This document shows positions 9,276 to 33,324 of a stretch of DNA of 33,324 nt, piece by piece. The stretch is from a virus. Taxonomy: Duplodnaviria; Caudoviricetes. Position numbers and translations under genes: made by a program. The stretch's first letter is position 1, and each line of letters opens with the position of its first letter. The notes below the pieces were generated by a model that was not told the DNA's origin, did not search any database, and was given only the letters and a program-made list of their open reading frames with translations. Location of the stretch: the IMG/VR virus record IMGVR_UViG_3300017754_002371, positions 1-33,324 of that record. One strand, written 5' to 3'.

Positions 9276-9481
9276 TGATACACTCACACCATCCAGACAA
9301 TAGCATATTAGTAATCATTACAAGCGTTATAATTCAAGCAGGGGTATGGACATCGGATTGGTTTGGCAATATGAATTTAACTGGTATCTACGATACCATT
9401 TATGATCTTGCCAAACTTGGTGCATTAGTAGTGTCAATGTGGGCTTCATACAGAGTAGCAAAGAAAAATAAGAATGAGTAA
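9275..9481 (+). CDS. Small membrane protein, holin-like
   Basis: Two hydrophobic segments and basic C-terminus (RVAKKNKNE), at the end of the late operon. Confidence 0.5.
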   Translation: MIHSHHPDNSILVIITSVIIQAGVWTSDWFGNMNLTGIYDTIYDLAKLGALVVSMWASYRVAKKNKNE

Positions 9482-9650
9482 TGAAGAGGCTGCTAATATA
9501 CCTCCATTAATAACAATTGCAGCCATTGTGATAGCCTTTATATTGCTTATGCTATATCAGTATAGGCAGCAAATAAATTATGTAGCAACATCGTTTAAAA
9601 TGGGTGTGATTGCCTTGTTAGTGACGCTAGGTATCATAGATGATAAATAA
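9474..9650 (+). CDS. Small membrane protein (58 aa; not in ORF track)
   Basis: MSNEEAANIPPLITIAAIVIAFILLMLY...GVIALLVTLGIIDDK; two hydrophobic stretches; overlaps the upstream stop. Confidence 0.6.
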   Translation: MSNEEAANIPPLITIAAIVIAFILLMLYQYRQQINYVATSFKMGVIALLVTLGIIDDK

Positions 9651-9677
9651 CAAAGCCCTCACATTTCTGCAAGGGCT
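9645..9677 (-). terminator. Intrinsic terminator with GAAA tetraloop
   Basis: Minus strand AGCCCTTGCA-GAAA-TGTGAGGGCT-TTGTTATTT; 10-bp stem with two G-U pairs; lies at the convergence of two operons. Confidence 0.75.
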
Positions 9678-9706
9678 ATGACCTAATAACTTAACTAACA
9701 TTGAAC
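9648..9706 (-). ncRNA. Predicted ~55-nt trans-acting sRNA antisense to early-gene start regions
   Basis: Promoter at 9740-9711 and terminator at 9677-9645 with no ORF between; 9681-9706 matches 15203-15226 at 23 of 26 columns. Confidence 0.55.
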
Positions 9707-9710
9707 GGGG

Positions 9711-9740
9711 CAAATATAGTAATTTATTTCAATCCAACAA
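9711..9740 (-). promoter_or_regulatory. Bacteroidota-type promoter for the predicted sRNA
   Basis: Minus strand TTG(9740-38)-N19-TATATTTG(9718-11). Confidence 0.6.
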
Positions 9741-10290
9741 CAAGCCATAAAATAAACATTGCCCCACCAACACACCACGCGGCTATCTTACCTCTTCTTT
9801 GTTGCTTTGTTTCTTGCTTGCTGATAGATAACAACGTACTATCAGTAACATTCTCCGCCTTGTAAGCAACTATTAAAGAATCCTTAATAGTACTTCCATC
9901 AGCACACAACTGAAACGCATTAAACAACGCTGCATAACTTGAATCTTTAACATTGATAATCTCATCACACAACACAAACACCGTGTCACAATCTTTTGGC
10001 AGCGTTGTACGCAACTTCTTAAGCAAAGCTATGTTAGTGTTGGTCAAAGATATTTCACATTGTCTAATCGAATCTTTTGCGTTGTTAGCAACTTGCAATC
10101 TTCGGTTAACTGATTCCAACTGATTCAACAATATTGCCTGCTCAATCCCAAACTGCTTCTTTATCATTTCCGCTTCGGTCTTATAATCAAATGGAATCGG
10201 CTTCGGTTTCTCCTTTGCGCAATGATTAAGCCCAATTATTAACAATAAGCATAGGACTGCAAAGGTTATAATTTGGTGGTGTGTTTTCAT
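9724..10290 (-). CDS. Spanin-like protein (N-terminal signal/TM ending in Cys, coiled coil, C-terminal TM)
   Basis: Likely start MKTHHQ at 10290; hydrophobic at both ends; same operon as endolysin and holin. Confidence 0.55.
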   Translation of the reverse strand: MKTHHQIITFAVLCLLLIIGLNHCAKEKPKPIPFDYKTEAEMIKKQFGIEQAILLNQLESVNRRLQVANNAKDSIRQCEISLTNTNIALLKKLRTTLPKDCDTVFVLCDEIINVKDSSYAALFNAFQLCADGSTIKDSLIVAYKAENVTDSTLLSISKQETKQQRRGKIAAWCVGGAMFILWLVVGLK

Positions 10291-13061: not shown

Positions 13062-13092
13062 TTTGTTTTAATAAAAATTTATAGTAGGTTTG
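13062..13092 (+). promoter_or_regulatory. Rightward Bacteroidota consensus promoter
   Basis: TTTG(13062-65)-N19-TAGGTTTG(13085-92). Confidence 0.8.
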
Positions 13093-13323: not shown

Positions 13324-13367
13324 AATCAAACACTACACATTTATAATCTAAAAACACAACTAACAAA

Positions 13368-13529
13368 ATGAAAGCACTAATCCAAAAACTATTATTCGGT
13401 TACCGAAACAACCCAGAAGCCTACATACCTAAAGGAGGCGCAAAACTTACTTATAAAGGTGGCAACGCTGAAGCCATACATTCAGCATTAGTATTAATGC
13501 AATACAATATACGAAATGCAAAAAACTAA
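13368..13529 (+). CDS. Hypothetical early protein (53 aa; not in ORF track)
   Basis: MKALIQKLLFGYRNNPEAY...AKN preceded by AACTAACAAA. Confidence 0.65.
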   Translation: MKALIQKLLFGYRNNPEAYIPKGGAKLTYKGGNAEAIHSALVLMQYNIRNAKN

Positions 13530-14887: not shown

Positions 14888-14918
14888 TTTGTAGGTTAAA
14901 AAAGTAGATGTACATTTG
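14888..14918 (+). promoter_or_regulatory. Bacteroidota consensus promoter for the recombination operon
   Basis: Intergenic TTTG-N19-TACATTTG. Confidence 0.8.
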
Positions 14919-14959
14919 CACTCAACAAATAACAATTACTAATTTTAAAAACTAACAAA

Positions 14960-15196
14960 ATGAACACAACACAATTAACAAAAAAAGTATCTTTCAGTTT
15001 CTCTGGTTACGGACACAACAAAGTAACCATCACATTCAGAGGTAAGCAATATTCTTGCACATCAACTAACACCAGCGCAACTGATAGGATTTCTGATGAC
15101 AATGATGGTATCAATCACGATACATATTACAAGACCAAGAAACAAGCATTTATGAGTCTTTACAACGAGTGCAAGAGAGCAAATAATTTAAGATAA
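14960..15196 (+). CDS. Hypothetical early protein
   Basis: First ORF after the promoter; AACTAACAAA-ATG start. Confidence 0.7.
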   Translation: MNTTQLTKKVSFSFSGYGHNKVTITFRGKQYSCTSTNTSATDRISDDNDGINHDTYYKTKKQAFMSLYNECKRANNLR

Positions 15197-15220
15197 TTAC
15201 AAACCTAATAACAACTAACA

Positions 15221-15511
15221 ATGAACTCGATTAACGTGATTACAAAAGTATCAACGCTAACAACTTGGCAAATTGAAAATTCAAAGGAACGCATCGAATA
15301 CGAATCAGACAATGAAACTTTTTACGTATGGAATAAAGACAACGAAATAACTGCTTCAATCGAACTTAAAGATGCATTCTGGACAATGCAATTATGTGAC
15401 CTTGCAGTATCTAATGACAAACACGAAATTAACTTACAATTCAACGATTACATTCCGCACACCTCATTCTTATCAATGGTATTAACCGATTTTTTACACA
15501 AAAACAAATAA
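15221..15511 (+). CDS. Hypothetical acidic early protein (best predicted sRNA target)
   Basis: 96-aa ORF; start region ACCTAATAACAACTAACAATGAAC. Confidence 0.7.
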   Translation: MNSINVITKVSTLTTWQIENSKERIEYESDNETFYVWNKDNEITASIELKDAFWTMQLCDLAVSNDKHEINLQFNDYIPHTSFLSMVLTDFLHKNK

Positions 15512-15845: not shown

Positions 15846-15865
15846 ATCTTAATACATAACTAACA

Positions 15866-16330
15866 ATGGAACAAAAAACACATTTTAAAAAATTACGCAA
15901 CCCAAATTATATCGGTGGGTGGGACTTAACAGATGCCGATAAAACAGTTACAATAACCAAAGTGGATAAAGAAAAAGTCCACGATGGCAAAGGTGGAGAA
16001 TCCGAATGCTGCATAGTGCATTTTGCCGAATGCAAACCGATGGTGGCTAACGCTACCAACTTAAAGCGCATATCGAAGCTATTAGGTAGCCCATTTATTG
16101 AAGACTGGACTAACAAACAAATAGTATTAACAACCGAAAAGGTTAGAGCATTTGGTGAGATGCACGATGCGGTTAGAGTGTCAACTAAACCAGTTACTAA
16201 ACCGACATTAAGCGGTGAAGCAATCGAAAAGGCCAAAGCGGCTATTGCTGCGGGATCAGTTACAATTGATGCAATAAAGAAAAAATATAATGTTACTAAC
16301 GAGGTGGAGGCTCAATTGACAAATGGATAA
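15866..16330 (+). CDS. Putative ssDNA-binding/annealing partner of the exonuclease
   Basis: KTHFKKL.NPNYIG, NATN and IEDW motifs; between SSB-like and exonuclease genes. Confidence 0.5.
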   Translation: MEQKTHFKKLRNPNYIGGWDLTDADKTVTITKVDKEKVHDGKGGESECCIVHFAECKPMVANATNLKRISKLLGSPFIEDWTNKQIVLTTEKVRAFGEMHDAVRVSTKPVTKPTLSGEAIEKAKAAIAAGSVTIDAIKKKYNVTNEVEAQLTNG

Positions 16331-16946
16331 GATATTCAGAATACATTGCTCACAGATAGGTAAAATAATGAGCAACGCAAAAACTAAAGGCGAACTTTCA
16401 GCAACCTGCAAAACATTCTTAATGGAATGGTATGCCAATGACCGCGAGCAAATACATTCAAAGTACATTATGAAAGGTAACTTGGTTGAGATTGACCTTA
16501 TAGACTTTATGGCCGAACAAATCGGTTTGGGGATGGCCGAAAAGAACGAAGTAACTGTGCATAATGAATGGATGGTTGGCACTTGCGATGTGCTAACAAA
16601 TCATTTAATCGTCGATGTTAAGGCTGCTTGGTCACGCAAAACACTACAGCAACAAGCTATCGATGGAATGAATCCTGACTATGAGTGGCAAGGTCGTGGT
16701 TACATGGCGCTTTGGGAGCGACCAACGTTTATAGTTTTTCATGGCCTTATGAATACACCAGAGGAGGCGAACTATGATGGCGAGGTTGTGTATGATGACT
16801 TGCCAGCTAACGAACGTTGGGTGGCTTATCAGGTGCAACGTGATGTAACTATTGAACAGTTAATTATTCAGCGCGTCATTCAATGTCGCGAATGGCTTGA
16901 GGAATATGATAAAAAAATAGTTGCGAGTTTAGGTAAGATTCATTAA
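16323..16946 (+). CDS. Lambda-exonuclease/YqaJ-like PD-(D/E)XK nuclease
   Basis: CSQIG, KGNLVE, GTCD, VDVK and YEWQGRGYM motifs. Confidence 0.8.
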   Translation: MDKIFRIHCSQIGKIMSNAKTKGELSATCKTFLMEWYANDREQIHSKYIMKGNLVEIDLIDFMAEQIGLGMAEKNEVTVHNEWMVGTCDVLTNHLIVDVKAAWSRKTLQQQAIDGMNPDYEWQGRGYMALWERPTFIVFHGLMNTPEEANYDGEVVYDDLPANERWVAYQVQRDVTIEQLIIQRVIQCREWLEEYDKKIVASLGKIH

Positions 16947-16951
16947 GTTTG
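16921..16951 (+). promoter_or_regulatory. Bacteroidota-type promoter ahead of the structured leader
   Basis: TTG(16921-23)-N20-TAAGTTTG(16944-51). Confidence 0.6.
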
Positions 16952-16955
16952 CATC

Positions 16956-17050
16956 GTTGTTTCGATTCCACATTATAGAAACATAACCTTATTGGCCTGT
17001 ATAACCGAGCGTAGAAGTGGAATCCTGCGCAAAGTTTTACAGGCTTTTTT
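16956..17050 (+). ncRNA. Structured RNA with two hairpins whose loops are complementary, ending in an intrinsic terminator
   Basis: TGTTTC/GAAACA stem with loop GATTCCAC; GCGTAG/CTGCGC stem with loop GTGGAATC inside GCCTGTA/TACAGGC stem followed by T6. Confidence 0.65.
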
Positions 17051-17063
17051 AATTCTTATAAGT

Positions 17064-21378: not shown

Positions 21379-22688
21379 TGAATGTCGATTTACAAGCCAA
21401 CCCAAAGCAGTATGATTTTTACATACAAGCGATGGCAGCGGCACAAGGCGCGACAGAGAAGCGCAATCTACTTTATGGCGGCGCTATTCGTGGTGGAAAG
21501 TCATTTATTTGTGCCACGATCTGTTTGCGTTTGGCATCTATGTATCCAAACAGCAAGTGGCATGTAATTAGGTCAGACTTTCCGAAGTTAGTAAAGACAA
21601 TCATACCCACATTTGAAAAGATTATCGATGGCTCACCTCACTTTAGATGGTCACGCGATAAGTCAAACTACTTCTTAGAGAATACCAAAACAAAATCAAA
21701 GATATTTTTTATGGCTGAAAACATAAGCCATGACCCCGAACTAAACGCATTCTTAGGACTTGAAACGAATGGAGTTTACTTTGAGCAAATCGAGGAACTG
21801 AGCAAGAAGTTATGGAACATCGGCAGCTCGCGTGTTGGTAGTTGGTACATTGATAAGATGCCAACACCTTTAATATTAGCAACGTTTAACCCGACTCAAA
21901 CGTGGATTAAAGATGAAATACACATACCTTACTTAAAAGGCGAGTTAGGCCCAGAGTTTTACTATCAACTTGCTTTACCCGATGACAATGCATTCGTAAC
22001 CGAGGAGCAACGTAAGGTTTGGTCACGTATGGATGAGCGTTATAAGAGGCAGTTTATTGGCGGCGATTGGACTAACTTCGATATGGATGGCAACCGTTGG
22101 GCCTATGCTTACGATTCGACTAAACACTTAAAGCCCGTTGAATTAAACAAACAACTGCCCATCATACTTTCGTTTGACTTTAACCGTAATCCAATATGTT
22201 GCTCAGTGTTGCAAGTTATGCCGCCATCAACTATACGCGTTAAGGAAACGATTAAGTTAGCTAATAGCGACATCTACCAACTTTGCGATGTTATTAAGTC
22301 TAAGTATGGCAATGCACTATACCAAGTAACTGGCGATGCTTCAGGCAAGTCATCGAGTGCATTGGTGCAAGATAACCTAAACTATTATGTTGTGATAAGG
22401 CAGAAGTTTAACCTTAGCAACAATCAAATGTTAGTGCCAAGCGTTAACCCATCGTTAGAAGAAAACCGAATGTTAGTTAACTCATTACTTGCGCGTGGCA
22501 ATGTCGAACTTGACCCTCAGTTTACTAAGGGCTTGCAATTCGATTTAGAAAACGTGGCGGTGTTGCCCGATGGGACAATAAAGAAAACAGACCGAAACGA
22601 TCCAACACAACAAGCCGATGCATTAGACACATTTCGTTATGCATGTAACACTTATCTAAAAAATTTCATATATTTGTCAAATGTTTAG
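21378..22688 (+). CDS. terL: Terminase large subunit
   Basis: Walker A GGAIRGGKS, TFNP coupling motif, nuclease SFDFN, GDASG and DALDTFRY. Confidence 0.92.
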   Translation: MNVDLQANPKQYDFYIQAMAAAQGATEKRNLLYGGAIRGGKSFICATICLRLASMYPNSKWHVIRSDFPKLVKTIIPTFEKIIDGSPHFRWSRDKSNYFLENTKTKSKIFFMAENISHDPELNAFLGLETNGVYFEQIEELSKKLWNIGSSRVGSWYIDKMPTPLILATFNPTQTWIKDEIHIPYLKGELGPEFYYQLALPDDNAFVTEEQRKVWSRMDERYKRQFIGGDWTNFDMDGNRWAYAYDSTKHLKPVELNKQLPIILSFDFNRNPICCSVLQVMPPSTIRVKETIKLANSDIYQLCDVIKSKYGNALYQVTGDASGKSSSALVQDNLNYYVVIRQKFNLSNNQMLVPSVNPSLEENRMLVNSLLARGNVELDPQFTKGLQFDLENVAVLPDGTIKKTDRNDPTQQADALDTFRYACNTYLKNFIYLSNV

Positions 22689-23289
22689 CGTAATCATTCC
22701 AACTATGTGGAGAAGTCCACGCATCACAAAGCTTGTTGAAGAACTATGTGCATGCGAATTTGTCGGTGAAGTAATCATTATTGACAACAACACAACTGAA
22801 TATAGACCGTTGCCGCTTAACGCTAAGTATGACATACACTTAATGGCTGAAAACATCTACGTAAACCCAGCATGGAATTACGGAGTTGAGCGTGCTAAGT
22901 ATGATAACATCTTAATTTGCAACGATGACATAAACTTCAATCCTGCATTCTTATCAATATTCGATGACAGTTTGCAGCACGTTGGCATTATCGGTATGGC
23001 ATTTGAAAACTACCAACTAAAGAAAGATGCTAACATACATTTGAAATCAATGAAGCAACGCCCATACGGATGGGGATGTATGATGTTAATGCATAAATCT
23101 AAATACGTTGCTATACCGGAAGACCTATTGATTGCAAATGGCGATGATTGGTTAGCGCAAAATTCAACGCCTTATGAGTTGCATGGGTTAAGTATTCAAT
23201 CCGAGATTAGCACAACTTCACAACTGCCTGAATTTGGAATGATTCAGTTGAATGATAACGAAATTTATAAGACAAAATATGCTAAGTAA
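22681..23289 (+). CDS. Glycosyltransferase family 2
   Basis: SVIIPT, IIIDN, NPAWNYG, ICNDD and GDDW GT-A motifs. Confidence 0.85.
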   Translation: MFSVIIPTMWRSPRITKLVEELCACEFVGEVIIIDNNTTEYRPLPLNAKYDIHLMAENIYVNPAWNYGVERAKYDNILICNDDINFNPAFLSIFDDSLQHVGIIGMAFENYQLKKDANIHLKSMKQRPYGWGCMMLMHKSKYVAIPEDLLIANGDDWLAQNSTPYELHGLSIQSEISTTSQLPEFGMIQLNDNEIYKTKYAK

Positions 23290-23836
23290 CGTAAATAAGT
23301 GGGACAATTGGTATAAAGACTTAGGAACAACACCGAGTGCATATAAGTATTCCGAAACGGAAACATACAAGATAGCTGCCGATTTTTTAAGAGGCTTAGA
23401 TGTGGTTGAAGATTGGGGAGTAGGATCTGGTGGTTTTTTAAATCATTTACCAAATGCAATTGGTGTTGATGGCAGCGATACTCCGTTTGCAGATAAGAAA
23501 TTTATTGATTTATGTAATTATACGACATTGGCAAACGGAATACATCTAAGGCATGTATTAGAACATAATTATAATTGGCAAAAAATATTTATCAACGCTT
23601 TATCCTCAGCAGTTAACAAGGTGGTAGTAACTTTGTTTATTCCATTAAGTGATAGTGAAACAAAAGAGTTGGCTCATAATTTAAAACATGGAGTTGATGT
23701 GCCTGATTTATCAATTTCAAAAAAAGAATTTAATGAAATATTAGAATCATTCTCGCCTAAACTTGTTGAAGTTCAAACGCTAAAAACACCAACTGGTTAT
23801 GGGGTTGAAATTATTTACAAAATAACAAAGAAATGA
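23279..23836 (+). CDS. Class I SAM-dependent methyltransferase-like protein
   Basis: VEDWGVGSG, GVDGS and RHVLEH; likely start MLSNVNKW. Confidence 0.7.
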   Translation: MLSNVNKWDNWYKDLGTTPSAYKYSETETYKIAADFLRGLDVVEDWGVGSGGFLNHLPNAIGVDGSDTPFADKKFIDLCNYTTLANGIHLRHVLEHNYNWQKIFINALSSAVNKVVVTLFIPLSDSETKELAHNLKHGVDVPDLSISKKEFNEILESFSPKLVEVQTLKTPTGYGVEIIYKITKK

Positions 23837-24486
23837 AAATAAGACTTGTATCATGCAACTTTGTAGATAATCAAAGTCTTATTATTAACAATCAAGAAGA
23901 GATTAATAGCTTAAGTGTTGATATTAAAATATACAATGACTCAAACACACCATCAAGGTTATTGAGCATGCATCCAAGGTTAAAGGGTAAAATACCTAAA
24001 ATGTTAGAATGGATTTCGGCACCTGGTTATGATTATTACATTTGGGTTGACTCAAAATTTACTTTAAATAACGGTATAATTCAAACCCTTATTAATCAAT
24101 TAGGCGATGCTGAGATAGGTTTGTTTAATCATTCACATAGAGATAGCATACAAACTGAATTGGAGTTTGTAAACACTTTAATTAACGAGGGTAACCATTA
24201 TTTAAATAGCAGATACGTTGGCGAACACATGGATAAACAAGTGGAGGATTATTTAAGCGATAATACATTTGTAGATGATAAGTTATTTGCTGCGGGTTGT
24301 TTTATTTATTCAAGCAAGTTGGTTAAAAATACTGAATATAATTTATTAAAAGAATGGTTTTTTCACAATAACATTTATTCAGTTCAAGACCAATTAAGTT
24401 TACCATATTTATTACATAAGTTTAAAACAAAATATATTACCTTTGACTTTGATTTATTGAATACAGAATTAATGAATTATAATTAA
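23833..24486 (+). CDS. DUF616-like glycosyltransferase
   Basis: KIPKM, YIWVDS, HSHRDSIQTE and QDQLSLPY motifs. Confidence 0.7.
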   Translation: MKIRLVSCNFVDNQSLIINNQEEINSLSVDIKIYNDSNTPSRLLSMHPRLKGKIPKMLEWISAPGYDYYIWVDSKFTLNNGIIQTLINQLGDAEIGLFNHSHRDSIQTELEFVNTLINEGNHYLNSRYVGEHMDKQVEDYLSDNTFVDDKLFAAGCFIYSSKLVKNTEYNLLKEWFFHNNIYSVQDQLSLPYLLHKFKTKYITFDFDLLNTELMNYN

Positions 24487-30468: not shown

Positions 30469-31344
30469 ATGCCAGTATCAATATTAAACATCCCAAATAG
30501 TTTTGTAACATTTTATGACCTTGGCACAGATGTCGGGCGAAGTGAATATATTACTGATACCGAGTGCGGAATACAAAAAGACTTTTGCTTACCGATTTAT
30601 GAGGTTGGCGATGTTGCTTTTCAAACGCAAATAGTATCGAGTGAGGTTATAAATAGCGTTACTATATACAAGATTCCTAACGGTGGCAGCGCGGTTATTG
30701 TTGCAGATGTAACTACAAACATTGTGACTAATGGAACACAAAGCGGAGTGCCGATTTATAACATTTGGTTTTCGTTTTTGTCATCTGACTTATTAGATAA
30801 CATTTATGATGGCGATTGTTTTCAGTTAGCGTTTGCTTGTGGTGTTGCTGAGCCAAGTTTTTTTATATCCAATCAATGCTTTAAAAAAGTTAACGATAAA
30901 TGTTTGAGCACTAAACTTGAATACATAAACACATCTAACGCTTTTGGGTTTGTTTATAGAGCATTTGGCACGTTTCCAAACATAGCATTGACAATAAATA
31001 GAATCCGCTTACCATTATACTTTAAAGAGCCAAACATTAGCAGCGACAAAACTGTTTACGTTCGACCAGATGGAAGCCGCCAATTATTATCGGCCCGTTT
31101 GGCAAAGCGTTATAAAGGTTATGTCGATGAGGTGCCGGAGGAAGTGCATCAAAACTTAGTCATTGCATTGAATCACGATGGCATTTACTTCACACCGGAA
31201 AACTTTGCAACTCAAATACAAGCACGTTTTGAGGATGAGTATAACAATAATTATCCCGAAATAATGCAGAACGTAAACATTTGGAGCTCAGATTTTACTA
31301 TCTTTGAAACGCCATTTAACAACTTTAACTCTAACTGCGAATGA
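30469..31344 (+). CDS. Tail-associated structural protein
   Basis: Position and beta-rich composition. Confidence 0.5.
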   Translation: MPVSILNIPNSFVTFYDLGTDVGRSEYITDTECGIQKDFCLPIYEVGDVAFQTQIVSSEVINSVTIYKIPNGGSAVIVADVTTNIVTNGTQSGVPIYNIWFSFLSSDLLDNIYDGDCFQLAFACGVAEPSFFISNQCFKKVNDKCLSTKLEYINTSNAFGFVYRAFGTFPNIALTINRIRLPLYFKEPNISSDKTVYVRPDGSRQLLSARLAKRYKGYVDEVPEEVHQNLVIALNHDGIYFTPENFATQIQARFEDEYNNNYPEIMQNVNIWSSDFTIFETPFNNFNSNCE

Positions 31345-32210
31345 CAACTGGAATACTCTTAATCGGAATCGGCCATAAAAACTATGGGTGCATGGCTGCA
31401 AACCTTGCGATGTCATTACGTGCAAACGGTTGTGACTTACCTATAACATTAGTAACGCAAGCCGATACTATCACGCGTTTAGATGAAGATTATAAGGCTT
31501 TGTTTACCGATATAAAAGAAATCCCGTCACATTGCTACACACTTGCCGATAACGAAACGTGTTATATTAAAGCAAAGGCACACATGGATGAGTTAACGCC
31601 TTATGACTATACGTTGTTTATTGATGCCGATGTGATTATGATTAACAATCATTCGATTAATGCAGAGATTGAAAAATTAAATGGAATTGATTTCGCGGTA
31701 AAGAATAGTGGGTTTAAAAACTATGATAGTGATGAGATTACTGCCGATTCAAAGCAATGGGCTAACTTATTAGAAGTAAAAGAGGCGTTCGGATTCACAA
31801 CTGAAAAGATTTGGAATGTTCATAGCGAGTTTATATGGTGGAAAAAAGGCCATCCATTGTTTGCAAAGTGGGTAGAAAACTTTGAAAACATACGTGTAAA
31901 AAACATTGAGTTTGCTGGATGCATACCCGATGAGTTACCGTTATGGATTGCAATGTGTCAGTTAGGTATTGACTGCCATGAAGAAATGTATCACCCTACT
32001 TTTTGGCCAATGGATTCAACTAAAACAATGCGATTAAAGGATTTAAAAGATGACTATTGTGGCATATCTATTGGAGGTAACCGAATAAGTGAAGTGCAAT
32101 TAACAATCTATAACAACCTTGTGCAAATTCATGCATTAAGAATGAATATGCGATATAAATTTTTACAACAGCCTAAAAGAAGATGGGCTCCAGAACGCCA
32201 TACTTATTAA
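31341..32210 (+). CDS. GT-A fold glycosyltransferase (GT8 / nucleotide-diphospho-sugar transferase-like)
   Basis: A.NLAMSLR, PITLVT, TPYDYTLFIDAD (DxD) and PDELPL. Confidence 0.75.
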   Translation: MTTGILLIGIGHKNYGCMAANLAMSLRANGCDLPITLVTQADTITRLDEDYKALFTDIKEIPSHCYTLADNETCYIKAKAHMDELTPYDYTLFIDADVIMINNHSINAEIEKLNGIDFAVKNSGFKNYDSDEITADSKQWANLLEVKEAFGFTTEKIWNVHSEFIWWKKGHPLFAKWVENFENIRVKNIEFAGCIPDELPLWIAMCQLGIDCHEEMYHPTFWPMDSTKTMRLKDLKDDYCGISIGGNRISEVQLTIYNNLVQIHALRMNMRYKFLQQPKRRWAPERHTY

Positions 32211-33324
32211 ATGGAAACCGAAAACAAATACATTATTATTGATGCCGATATCGTTGCCGATGTCGCACGTAATCCACATATTGAGGATGAAGAGTATGTT
32301 AACTTTCAATACTATTCTGATGGAAAATATCCGCGTAAATTAATCGATGAGGTAAGACCTAACGAACACATAATCGTAAAGGAGTATCGTAAAAAAACTT
32401 ATGAGGCGGTTTTTAGCGAAGTTTATGATCGCGTTTTAAATGCACTAAATAAAATACAACGTGCGGATGGATTCTTTTTAAAGTTTCCCGACACGCAATA
32501 TCCACGAATTGCCAAAGATGAGGACTTAAAAACATACCTCACAAAAAACTTTACCGCTTCCAAGTCCTTAATGAATTGGGCTTTTCAAGTTGGTTTAAAA
32601 CAATATACAATCGATGCTAATGGTGTTATTATTGTGTGGGCAGAACAAGCTGAGCCAACTGAATATAAGAAGCCGAAACCTTACGTAATTAATTCAAGTA
32701 GCATTGTTTACCATTACGAGGGCAATTCGATTGTCTATAAAGATGATGACAATGGCAATGTATATTATTCAATTGATAAGATTAGTTGGTCAAAGTGGCG
32801 CAAGAAAAAGAAAGGCAACGGTTTTGATTTAGTTGAGGAAACATTTCATGGCCTTGGTGTATTCCCTGGCTTTACAATCGGTGGTGTTGTAGAAGAGGAA
32901 GAGGAACTTGGCCGCGAATATCAAAGCAGATTAAAGGCAATGCTCCCATGGTTAAACGTGGCAACGGTTGAGTTTAGTGATTTACGTGCTGAAATAACGC
33001 AACACATACATTCAACTGTTTGGATTTACCAAGATGAGCAATGTAAGTCATGCAACGGTCAAGGGTTTACGTTTACAAAAGAGCAAGAGCGTGTGCCATG
33101 TACGAATAGCAAGTGTAAGGATGGGCAGATACCGACATCGCCTTACGAAACTATACGTGTAAGGCCTGCGAAAACAACGATGGGAGAAGTGCCAGCACCG
33201 ACTCCACCGATGGGCTACATTCAAAAACAAACCGAGATTGCAGAGTTGCAGGATAGGAGGATAAACGAAATGCGCTATCGTTCACTTGCCGCAGTAAACA
33301 TGCAGTTTTTGGAGGTACAACCAA
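32211..33324 (+). CDS. Portal protein, N-terminal part (METENKYIII...; runs off the end, missing from ORF track)
   Basis: Frame is open from ATG 32211 to the window end and in frame with the overlap at position 1; contains CKSCNGQG...CTNSKCKDG. Confidence 0.8.
   Translation, partial: METENKYIIIDADIVADVARNPHIEDEEYVNFQYYSDGKYPRKLIDEVRPNEHIIVKEYRKKTYEAVFSEVYDRVLNALNKIQRADGFFLKFPDTQYPRIAKDEDLKTYLTKNFTASKSLMNWAFQVGLKQYTIDANGVIIVWAEQAEPTEYKKPKPYVINSSSIVYHYEGNSIVYKDDDNGNVYYSIDKISWSKWRKKKKGNGFDLVEETFHGLGVFPGFTIGGVVEEEEELGREYQSRLKAMLPWLNVATVEFSDLRAEITQHIHSTVWIYQDEQCKSCNGQGFTFTKEQERVPCTNSKCKDGQIPTSPYETIRVRPAKTTMGEVPAPTPPMGYIQKQTEIAELQDRRINEMRYRSLAAVNMQFLEVQP
33201..33324 (+). repeat. Imperfect terminal direct repeat, copy 2
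   Basis: Matches 1-124 with mostly synonymous differences. Confidence 0.95.

Follow-up and report, generated by a model that had tools for sequence, protein, structure and literature searches.

Among described RNAs, the closest to the one predicted here are FopS and GibS of Bacteroides. FopS is a paralogous small RNA (sRNA) family of Bacteroides thetaiotaomicron (Rfam RF04319, BTncRNA_FopS); according to the accessible text of its source (PMC11697453), FopS represses susC at the start codon, the RNAs bind RbpB via their 5′ part, and one copy was noted in a Caudovirales phage, as a vehicle for its spread. Both FopS-10 and GibS pair with start codons and thereby block initiation (PMC11697453; PMC7366714), and Bacteroidota initiate on A-rich starts without Shine-Dalgarno pairing (PMC6847099). 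Phage RNAs that repress phage genes by pairing include P22 sar, lambda OOP, aQ, and BTP1 STnc6030, which act on one gene each, in temperate phages; in the accessible part of the review that describes them, every phage antisense RNA acts on one gene or on host genes (PMC12197685).

Setting and anatomy of the predicted RNA unit

The window is a phage record of 33,324 bases, analyzed here over its whole length. Because its last 125 bases (33200–33324) are similar to its first 125 (1–125) and the portal gene spans both record ends, the genome is probably near complete; CheckV completeness of the record is 73%, and relatives with terminal repeats measure 33.5 to 36.3 kb. The end overlap, which lies inside the portal gene, is imperfect, suggesting a circular genome assembled from strain variants. 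A search for a cultured relative found none (best identity, <40%). Ahead of the early genes (13085 and 14911) and the leftward operon (13037) stand TAnnTTTG boxes, each spaced 19 nt from an upstream TTG. Since such boxes match the housekeeping promoter consensus of Bacteroidota, in which the start site lies 4 to 5 nt farther on (PMC6847099), the host is presumably a member of this phylum. Late genes at 22681–24486 and 31341–32210 include glycosyltransferase-like and methyltransferase-like genes (PF00535, PF04765; PF13489, PF11051 weak).

The unit occupies 9740–9645 on the minus strand, where the promoter (TTG-N19-TATATTTG) and the GAAA-tetraloop terminator of the original prediction are both present. 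Its −33 element (TTG, 9738–9740), assigned from published promoter consensus sequences (PMC6847099; PMC7366714), stands 19 nt before the −7 box, TATATTTG (9711–9718), which has the TAnnTTTG form of the Bacteroidota housekeeping type. Four nucleotides separate the end of the box at 9711 from the predicted +1 (a G at 9706), the first base of a 14-nt seed (9693–9706) that complements AACUAAC(A)-AUG-AAC, with position 6 mostly unpaired. There follows a variable, unpaired extension of the lead (9678–9692), which lengthens pairing to gene 15221 in this isolate only; the entire 29-nt lead (9706–9678) is predicted to fold unpaired. The unit ends at 9645–9677 in a terminator-like 10-bp hairpin with a GAAA loop (9677–9654) and a T-rich tail; the fold of −16.6 kcal/mol (z, −5.1) was matched by 0 of 200 shuffles. 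The window has just one promoter-plus-terminator unit of this quality, 0 of 40 dinucleotide shuffles gave one, and the unit itself is single-copy in the window. The predicted RNA would be ∼58 to 62 nt long, rather than the ∼55 nt first proposed. Although no ORF had been seen between promoter and hairpin, a 54-codon plus-strand frame with a TTG start crosses the unit; we rejected it as a gene because the frame varies from 7 to 54 codons among related loci and its start changes to CTG in five of them. Two RNA runs contained 4 to 5% of the words, as contigs only, which give no strand, ends, or level.

The gene just upstream (9724–10290, minus strand) is the last of the leftward endolysin-bearing operon; its position and hydrophobic ends suggest a spanin-like protein, and it has no family match. 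The −33 element lies inside its last codons, and the hairpin therefore likely terminates the leftward operon as well. That second use, together with the binding of RbpB by FopS RNAs (PMC11697453), would suit a reading in which the RNA is made but serves as a decoy for a protein (for example, an RbpB-like RNA-binding protein) or is the 3′ end of the leftward mRNA, with no pairing to start codons. We consider this very unlikely: it leaves unexplained both the tracking of lineage-specific start motifs by the seed and the retention of the unit's own box after insertions, each of which is described below.

Rfam searches gave no match in the window, at the RNA locus, or at ten distant units; Flavo-1, considered as a candidate identity, likewise gave no match. 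Like FopS, the unit has a canonical TAnnTTTG promoter and, judging from prediction and conservation, a 5′ stretch that is single-stranded and then an intrinsic terminator hairpin; also like FopS, it is predicted to pair beside start codons and block initiation. Unlike FopS, it is not recognized by RF04319, which had no match in the window at E ≤ 10 and scored 0 of 5 related records over the Rfam gathering cutoff of 56 bits (best, 17.4 bits). The TTTTTCATAG run of the FopS consensus R1′ seed is missing, the window seed being GTTCAATGTTAGTT. Whereas FopS is multicopy, chromosomal, and found in Bacteroidaceae, the unit is single-copy and phage-borne, and its predicted targets are the phage's own early genes instead of host susC mRNAs. 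GibS shares the unstructured 5′ seed across start codons, in a phylum without Shine-Dalgarno sites, but as its source describes it, it is 145 nt long, carries two seeds, uses another promoter type, is chromosomal, and has metabolic targets (PMC7366714). By analogy, the unit appears to work like the Bacteroides RNAs FopS and GibS but is not a member of the FopS family.

The nearest known RNAs are these two and not the sar, c4, and CI RNAs cited in the original prediction. P1 c4 and P4 CI repress phage genes by pairing; each is a processed, structured RNA that controls an antirepressor or termination in a temperate phage. Rfam gave no match at our locus, and no integrase or HTH_3 domain was found in the scans. 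As with sar, OOP, aQ, and STnc6030 (PMC12197685), a phage RNA is predicted to repress phage genes by pairing, but it would do so imperfectly, through a shared start motif, in a phage without detectable integrase. We rejected a cis-antisense RNA of the sar, OOP, or aQ type because the four predicted targets lie 3.7 to 6.2 kb from the unit and because the opposite-strand frame is not conserved. Also rejected was a type I antitoxin for the convergent gene 9474–9650, which is ∼2 kb from the unit in six relatives (L002, L006, L011, L022, L030, and L063); the start of this gene pairs at −8.0 kcal/mol, and 177 of 300 shuffles were as good. Literature searches, which covered mostly open-access papers, listed no phage sRNA whose target is a start motif common to early genes of the same phage.

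Conservation in related phages

An exact scan for the hairpin alone yielded 77 viral loci, 54 of which are related to the window (at least three shared proteins and mean identity of at least 70%); these 54 are close strains, not independent lineages. A TAnnTTTG box lies within 60 nt in 53 of the 54, with variation confined to its two free positions; in the 54th, the box differs by one letter. A TTG stands at 17 to 22 nt in 42. The seed is kept in 53 of 54, counting variants: 46 loci carry GTTCAATGTTAGTT, 5 differ by a G at position 6, 2 continue with GTTGTT after position 10, and the remaining 1 has a FopS-like seed. Box-to-seed spacing is 4 nt in 61 of 64 units, yet there is free variation in the four bases of the spacer and in the 3′ lead (the 64 units have 22 distinct leads, of 20 to 30 nt). 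The hairpin is paired in 90 of 90 cells, with one double-sided and three one-sided changes; since all four come from one allele, the support for pairing is weak (44 of 500 shuffles). When records were chosen by a protein, the unit was present in 17 of 18 distinct records, a count that leaves out one pattern-chosen record; the lone exception is a record that ends 1.3 kb downstream. The upstream gene and the unit are set apart in 30 of 63 loci by 40 to 1614 nt of other DNA, in which methylase-like genes are frequent; even there, with different sequence upstream, the unit retains its own box.

Judged by its sequence, this is the conservation pattern of a stand-alone RNA gene and not of a decayed gene start. 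The original prediction had itself raised the decayed copy, against which the persistence of box and seed in relatives speaks. A terminator adjoining an inverted and decayed copy of the start of an early gene, without any function as RNA, would account for the resemblance of the unit's plus strand to a start region with a TTG codon; this reading is highly improbable and largely refuted by conservation, because flanking bases vary around a conserved seed and box, the TTG frame is not maintained, and distant lineages have units of the same build in the same position following the lysis gene.

Several other elements were seen near the hairpin or in the insertions. Four unrelated phages (L226, L229, L240, and L269) carry the identical 20-nt hairpin behind FopS-like TTCAT leads, with no full TAnnTTTG box within 60 nt of it. 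In L244 (3904–4677), the inserted methylase-like gene upstream of the unit begins with the full start motif, or address, that the seed complements (AACTAACA-ATG-AAC); cargo genes may therefore fall under the RNA too. In L006 (4247–4279), L011 (4440–4508), L027, and L034, methylase-like and other genes inserted after the lysis-end gene start with a TAnnTTTG box of their own and a leader of ∼75 nt. The layout is attenuator-like, since a 5′ TGTAGGAG in the leader can pair with a CTCCTAC that belongs to a terminator hairpin; L082, L089, L091 to L095, L143, and L156 have the same layout in other letters. At 16944–17056 (plus strand), the window has a box (TAAGTTTG), a structured leader, and a terminator-like hairpin with a T tail before gene 17064 (z, −3.4); relatives show variants with alternative pairings, and this leader is probably of the same attenuator-like class.

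Predicted targets and the seed that reads them

The core AACTAACA ends 0 to 2 nt ahead of the ATGs at 13368, 14960, 15221, and 15866, exactly as first described for 13368, 14960, and 15866, and the match of 9681–9706 to the start of gene 15221 (15203–15226) holds at 23 of 26 columns, likewise exactly. The motif ACTAAC-N0-3-ATG is restricted to early starts, occurring at 4 of 11 of these versus 0 of 41 other called starts (Fisher p = 0.0012). The strongest predicted target, on the plus strand like the other three, is the start of gene 15221 (15203–15226; 96 amino acids [aa]), with a hybrid energy of −26.7 and a net energy of −24.7 kcal/mol; it is followed by the starts of gene 15866 (15848–15872; phrog_21613; −18.5 and −15.8 kcal/mol), gene 13368 (13346–13372; 53 aa; −16.2 and −14.9 kcal/mol), and gene 14960 (14939–14965; 78 aa; −16.2 and −10.2 kcal/mol). 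Among 54 start regions, the four rank 1, 3, 4, and 5 by energy, and the start of 15221 is the top non-self site among 3328 genome windows. Shuffled leads reached the hybrid energies of −26.7, −18.5, −16.2, and −16.2 kcal/mol in 0, 1, 0, and 2 of 300 cases. The window was chosen for its match, and its own p values are therefore inflated; the comparative tests given below weigh more than these statistics. The terminase start (21378) was considered as a fifth target and rejected: its hybrid energy ranks second (−22.6 kcal/mol), but its net energy after opening is −9.1 kcal/mol and the AUG is not covered.

To call these targets recombination genes, as had been done, is loose. Three of the four (all but 15866) have no family match, and gene 15221 also has no usable atlas match. 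Gene 15866 sits between SSB-like gene 15522 and the exonuclease gene and has a weak OB-fold-like match only; its fold search returned nothing at E ≤ 0.001 (best match, PrgE at 0.003). Gene 13368 overlaps the start of a possible HTH gene (13516; HTH scores, <0.9), and gene 14960 is the first past the promoter box at 14911. G006 and L231 have a different protein in the early block, which we take from its N terminus to be RecT-like; G006 has no 15866 homologue, and the homologue in L231 starts with the ACTAAC address.

Gene 15221 also has antisense elements of its own. In the window, a TACTTTTG box with a TTG 18 nt upstream lies antisense inside it (15243–15250, minus strand). Many relatives (the loci noted are L003, L005, L008 to L010, L014, L019, L022, L030, and L033) have a GC-rich hairpin with a minus-strand T tail just upstream of the gene, which the window lacks; where the hairpin is present, box and hairpin could yield a cis-antisense RNA over the same start.

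Position 6 of the seed lies opposite the A of AUG or is bulged. It is paired in 7 of 35 predicted own-genome duplexes, a count in which pairing at seed positions 8 to 13 is built in because targets were picked by the ACTAAC motif, and it is the site of the A-to-G substitution, the one point substitution. The GTTGTT seed variant mirrors the AACTAACAAC spacing ahead of gene 13368 in many relatives. We infer that the free sixth base lets one seed fit several spacings, among them AAC-AUG and AACA-AUG.

Within the clade of the window (clade A), ACTAAC starts number 2 to 5 per genome in nine genomes, mostly at homologues of the same early genes, but seed and target do not co-vary at the level of alleles (32 distinct pairs from 39 loci; p = 0.23). 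Allele pairs mostly fall between −9 and −20 kcal/mol, with relatives averaging about −15 kcal/mol; net energies for the seed only are modest (−8 to −13 kcal/mol). Since only the 14-nt seed is conserved, the 23-of-26 match to 15221 is this isolate's best case: the long complementarity that had been stressed earlier is real here and is not shared by the relatives.

Co-variation does appear between lineages. Units of the same build with other seeds occur in distant phages, directly after the homologous lysis gene in clade B, after the early operon in clade C, and after a lipoprotein gene in clade D. A pattern scan (box, TTCAT, and loop) gave 44 loci, 20 of them with a true hairpin and T tail, in which the anti-AUG part is present by construction. 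Start motifs differ accordingly from lineage to lineage: ACTAAC-N0-3-ATG occurs 2 to 5 times per genome in 7 of 7 clade A genomes and 0 to 2 times elsewhere, CCT-ATG 2 to 5 times in 5 of 5 clade B genomes and 0 to 1 times elsewhere, and AATT-ATG 7 times in L150 and 0 to 4 times elsewhere. When 11 leads were set against 11 sets of starts, leads fit their own genomes better than permuted ones (p = 0.0006 and 0.00009); this held with clade A removed (p = 0.005 and 0.0014; range, 0.001 to 0.005), and, when each lineage was represented by a single genome, p was below 0.05 in 27 of 32 combinations and above 0.05 in 5 (range, 0.003 to 0.078). The signal stems from clades A to D and is absent in 4 of the 11 phages (G435 to G438), which rank their own genomes 4th to 10th; two of these four are only 35% and 62% complete. 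Shared host or base composition can produce part of such a self-match. The proposal of a trans-acting sRNA with several targets, as a prediction, is thus borne out by conservation, by co-variation between lineages, and by the confinement of the motif to early starts; co-variation within the clade did not bear it out.

A close relative, L186, carries the same hairpin at the homologous place with a FopS-like seed, GTTTTCATAGT, and has no ACTAAC starts in the part of its early region covered. This links the RNA of this clade to the FopS type and hints that seed and address shifted jointly.

Phage targets, host targets, and the proposed role of the RNA

L186 also bears on whether the RNA is instead a captured FopS-like regulator aimed at host mRNAs (for example, those of outer membrane transporters, possible receptors), with the match to phage starts arising from shared tuning to the host's strong start context. 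In its favor, FopS is alike in anatomy, acts on susC, and was seen in one phage (PMC11697453, as far as its accessible text goes); FopS-like TTTTCAT seeds are found in L186 and in many distant phage units, that of L186 could equally address host mRNAs, and the leads of G436 to G438 fit their own starts no better than others. Against this, the clade seed has lost the generic anti-AUG run, and the address is scarce in bacteria: the 13- to 14-nt form occurs in 42 of 401 sampled genomes (phylum of a Bacteroidota-labeled record), at most twice in each and no more often than a reversed control, which occurs in more genomes, although the true host may be outside the sample. Among clade A genomes, 6 of 8 have the same address at early starts, its full form being absent from G001 and from G024, a partial genome; of 14 other phages, 1 contains it. 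For a shorter address, no genome of 201 exceeded 5 copies, with a frequency near that of the control, versus 4 copies in 33 kb here. These counts favor phage targets, and we regard an RNA aimed at the host as quite unlikely.

The original prediction had set the RNA in a genome with no recognizable CI repressor, an immunity or CI-substitute framing. Searches for integrase, serine recombinase, and HTH_3 found none in the window scans or in 5 near-complete relatives (0 of 5), and such a role is therefore unsupported. The same absence tells against a related reading that keeps the pairing but changes its purpose, in which a genome already resident, or the first to arrive, makes RNA that silences early genes of relatives entering the cell (superinfection or co-infection exclusion, or a carrier state) and the address is a clade-wide immunity code. 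In keeping with this reading, seed and address are common to the clade despite mosaic early-gene content, alleles fit one another's targets equally well, a constitutive-type promoter suits expression from a resident genome, and antisense exclusion is described for BTP1 STnc6030 in the accessible part of PMC12197685. A collection of species-representative genomes, however, gave 16 matches, none with the hairpin, and we think exclusion unlikely to be the main role.

On balance, we favor, with somewhat better than even confidence, a stand-alone RNA gene of ∼60 nt whose unpaired 5′ seed complements a motif that four early genes of the phage itself share at their start codons; acting in trans, the RNA would likely block translation of these genes and shut off early expression with a delay. 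Host RNA polymerase would read the TAnnTTTG box and start at 9706; the seed would then span about −10 to +5 of each target, the stretch read by Bacteroidota ribosomes in place of a Shine-Dalgarno site. Being of host type, the promoter would be active from the onset of infection, and RNA levels would rise with time and with the number of genome copies. Since the early promoters at 13085 and 14911 share the unit promoter's type, this accumulation would amount to delayed negative feedback rather than a lysogeny switch; delayed early shut-off fits better than the CI-substitute role. A broader proposal is more tentative: Bacteroidota phages may possibly have turned a FopS-like RNA into an address system, in which a lineage-private early-gene motif and one RNA with a matching seed give a repressor-free, regulon-wide translational shut-off that doubles as a lineage-specific immunity code against related phages.

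If this reading is right, one RNA that reads a shared start-codon address on several genes of its own genome would make up a compact regulon that needs no protein repressor and suits a phylum without Shine-Dalgarno sites. The clade offers a good test case, since its seed no longer has the generic anti-AUG form, its address is seldom met among sampled bacterial genomes, and its natural seed variants define the pairing register. If true, the finding would also suggest a source of new seeds for the multicopy FopS family.
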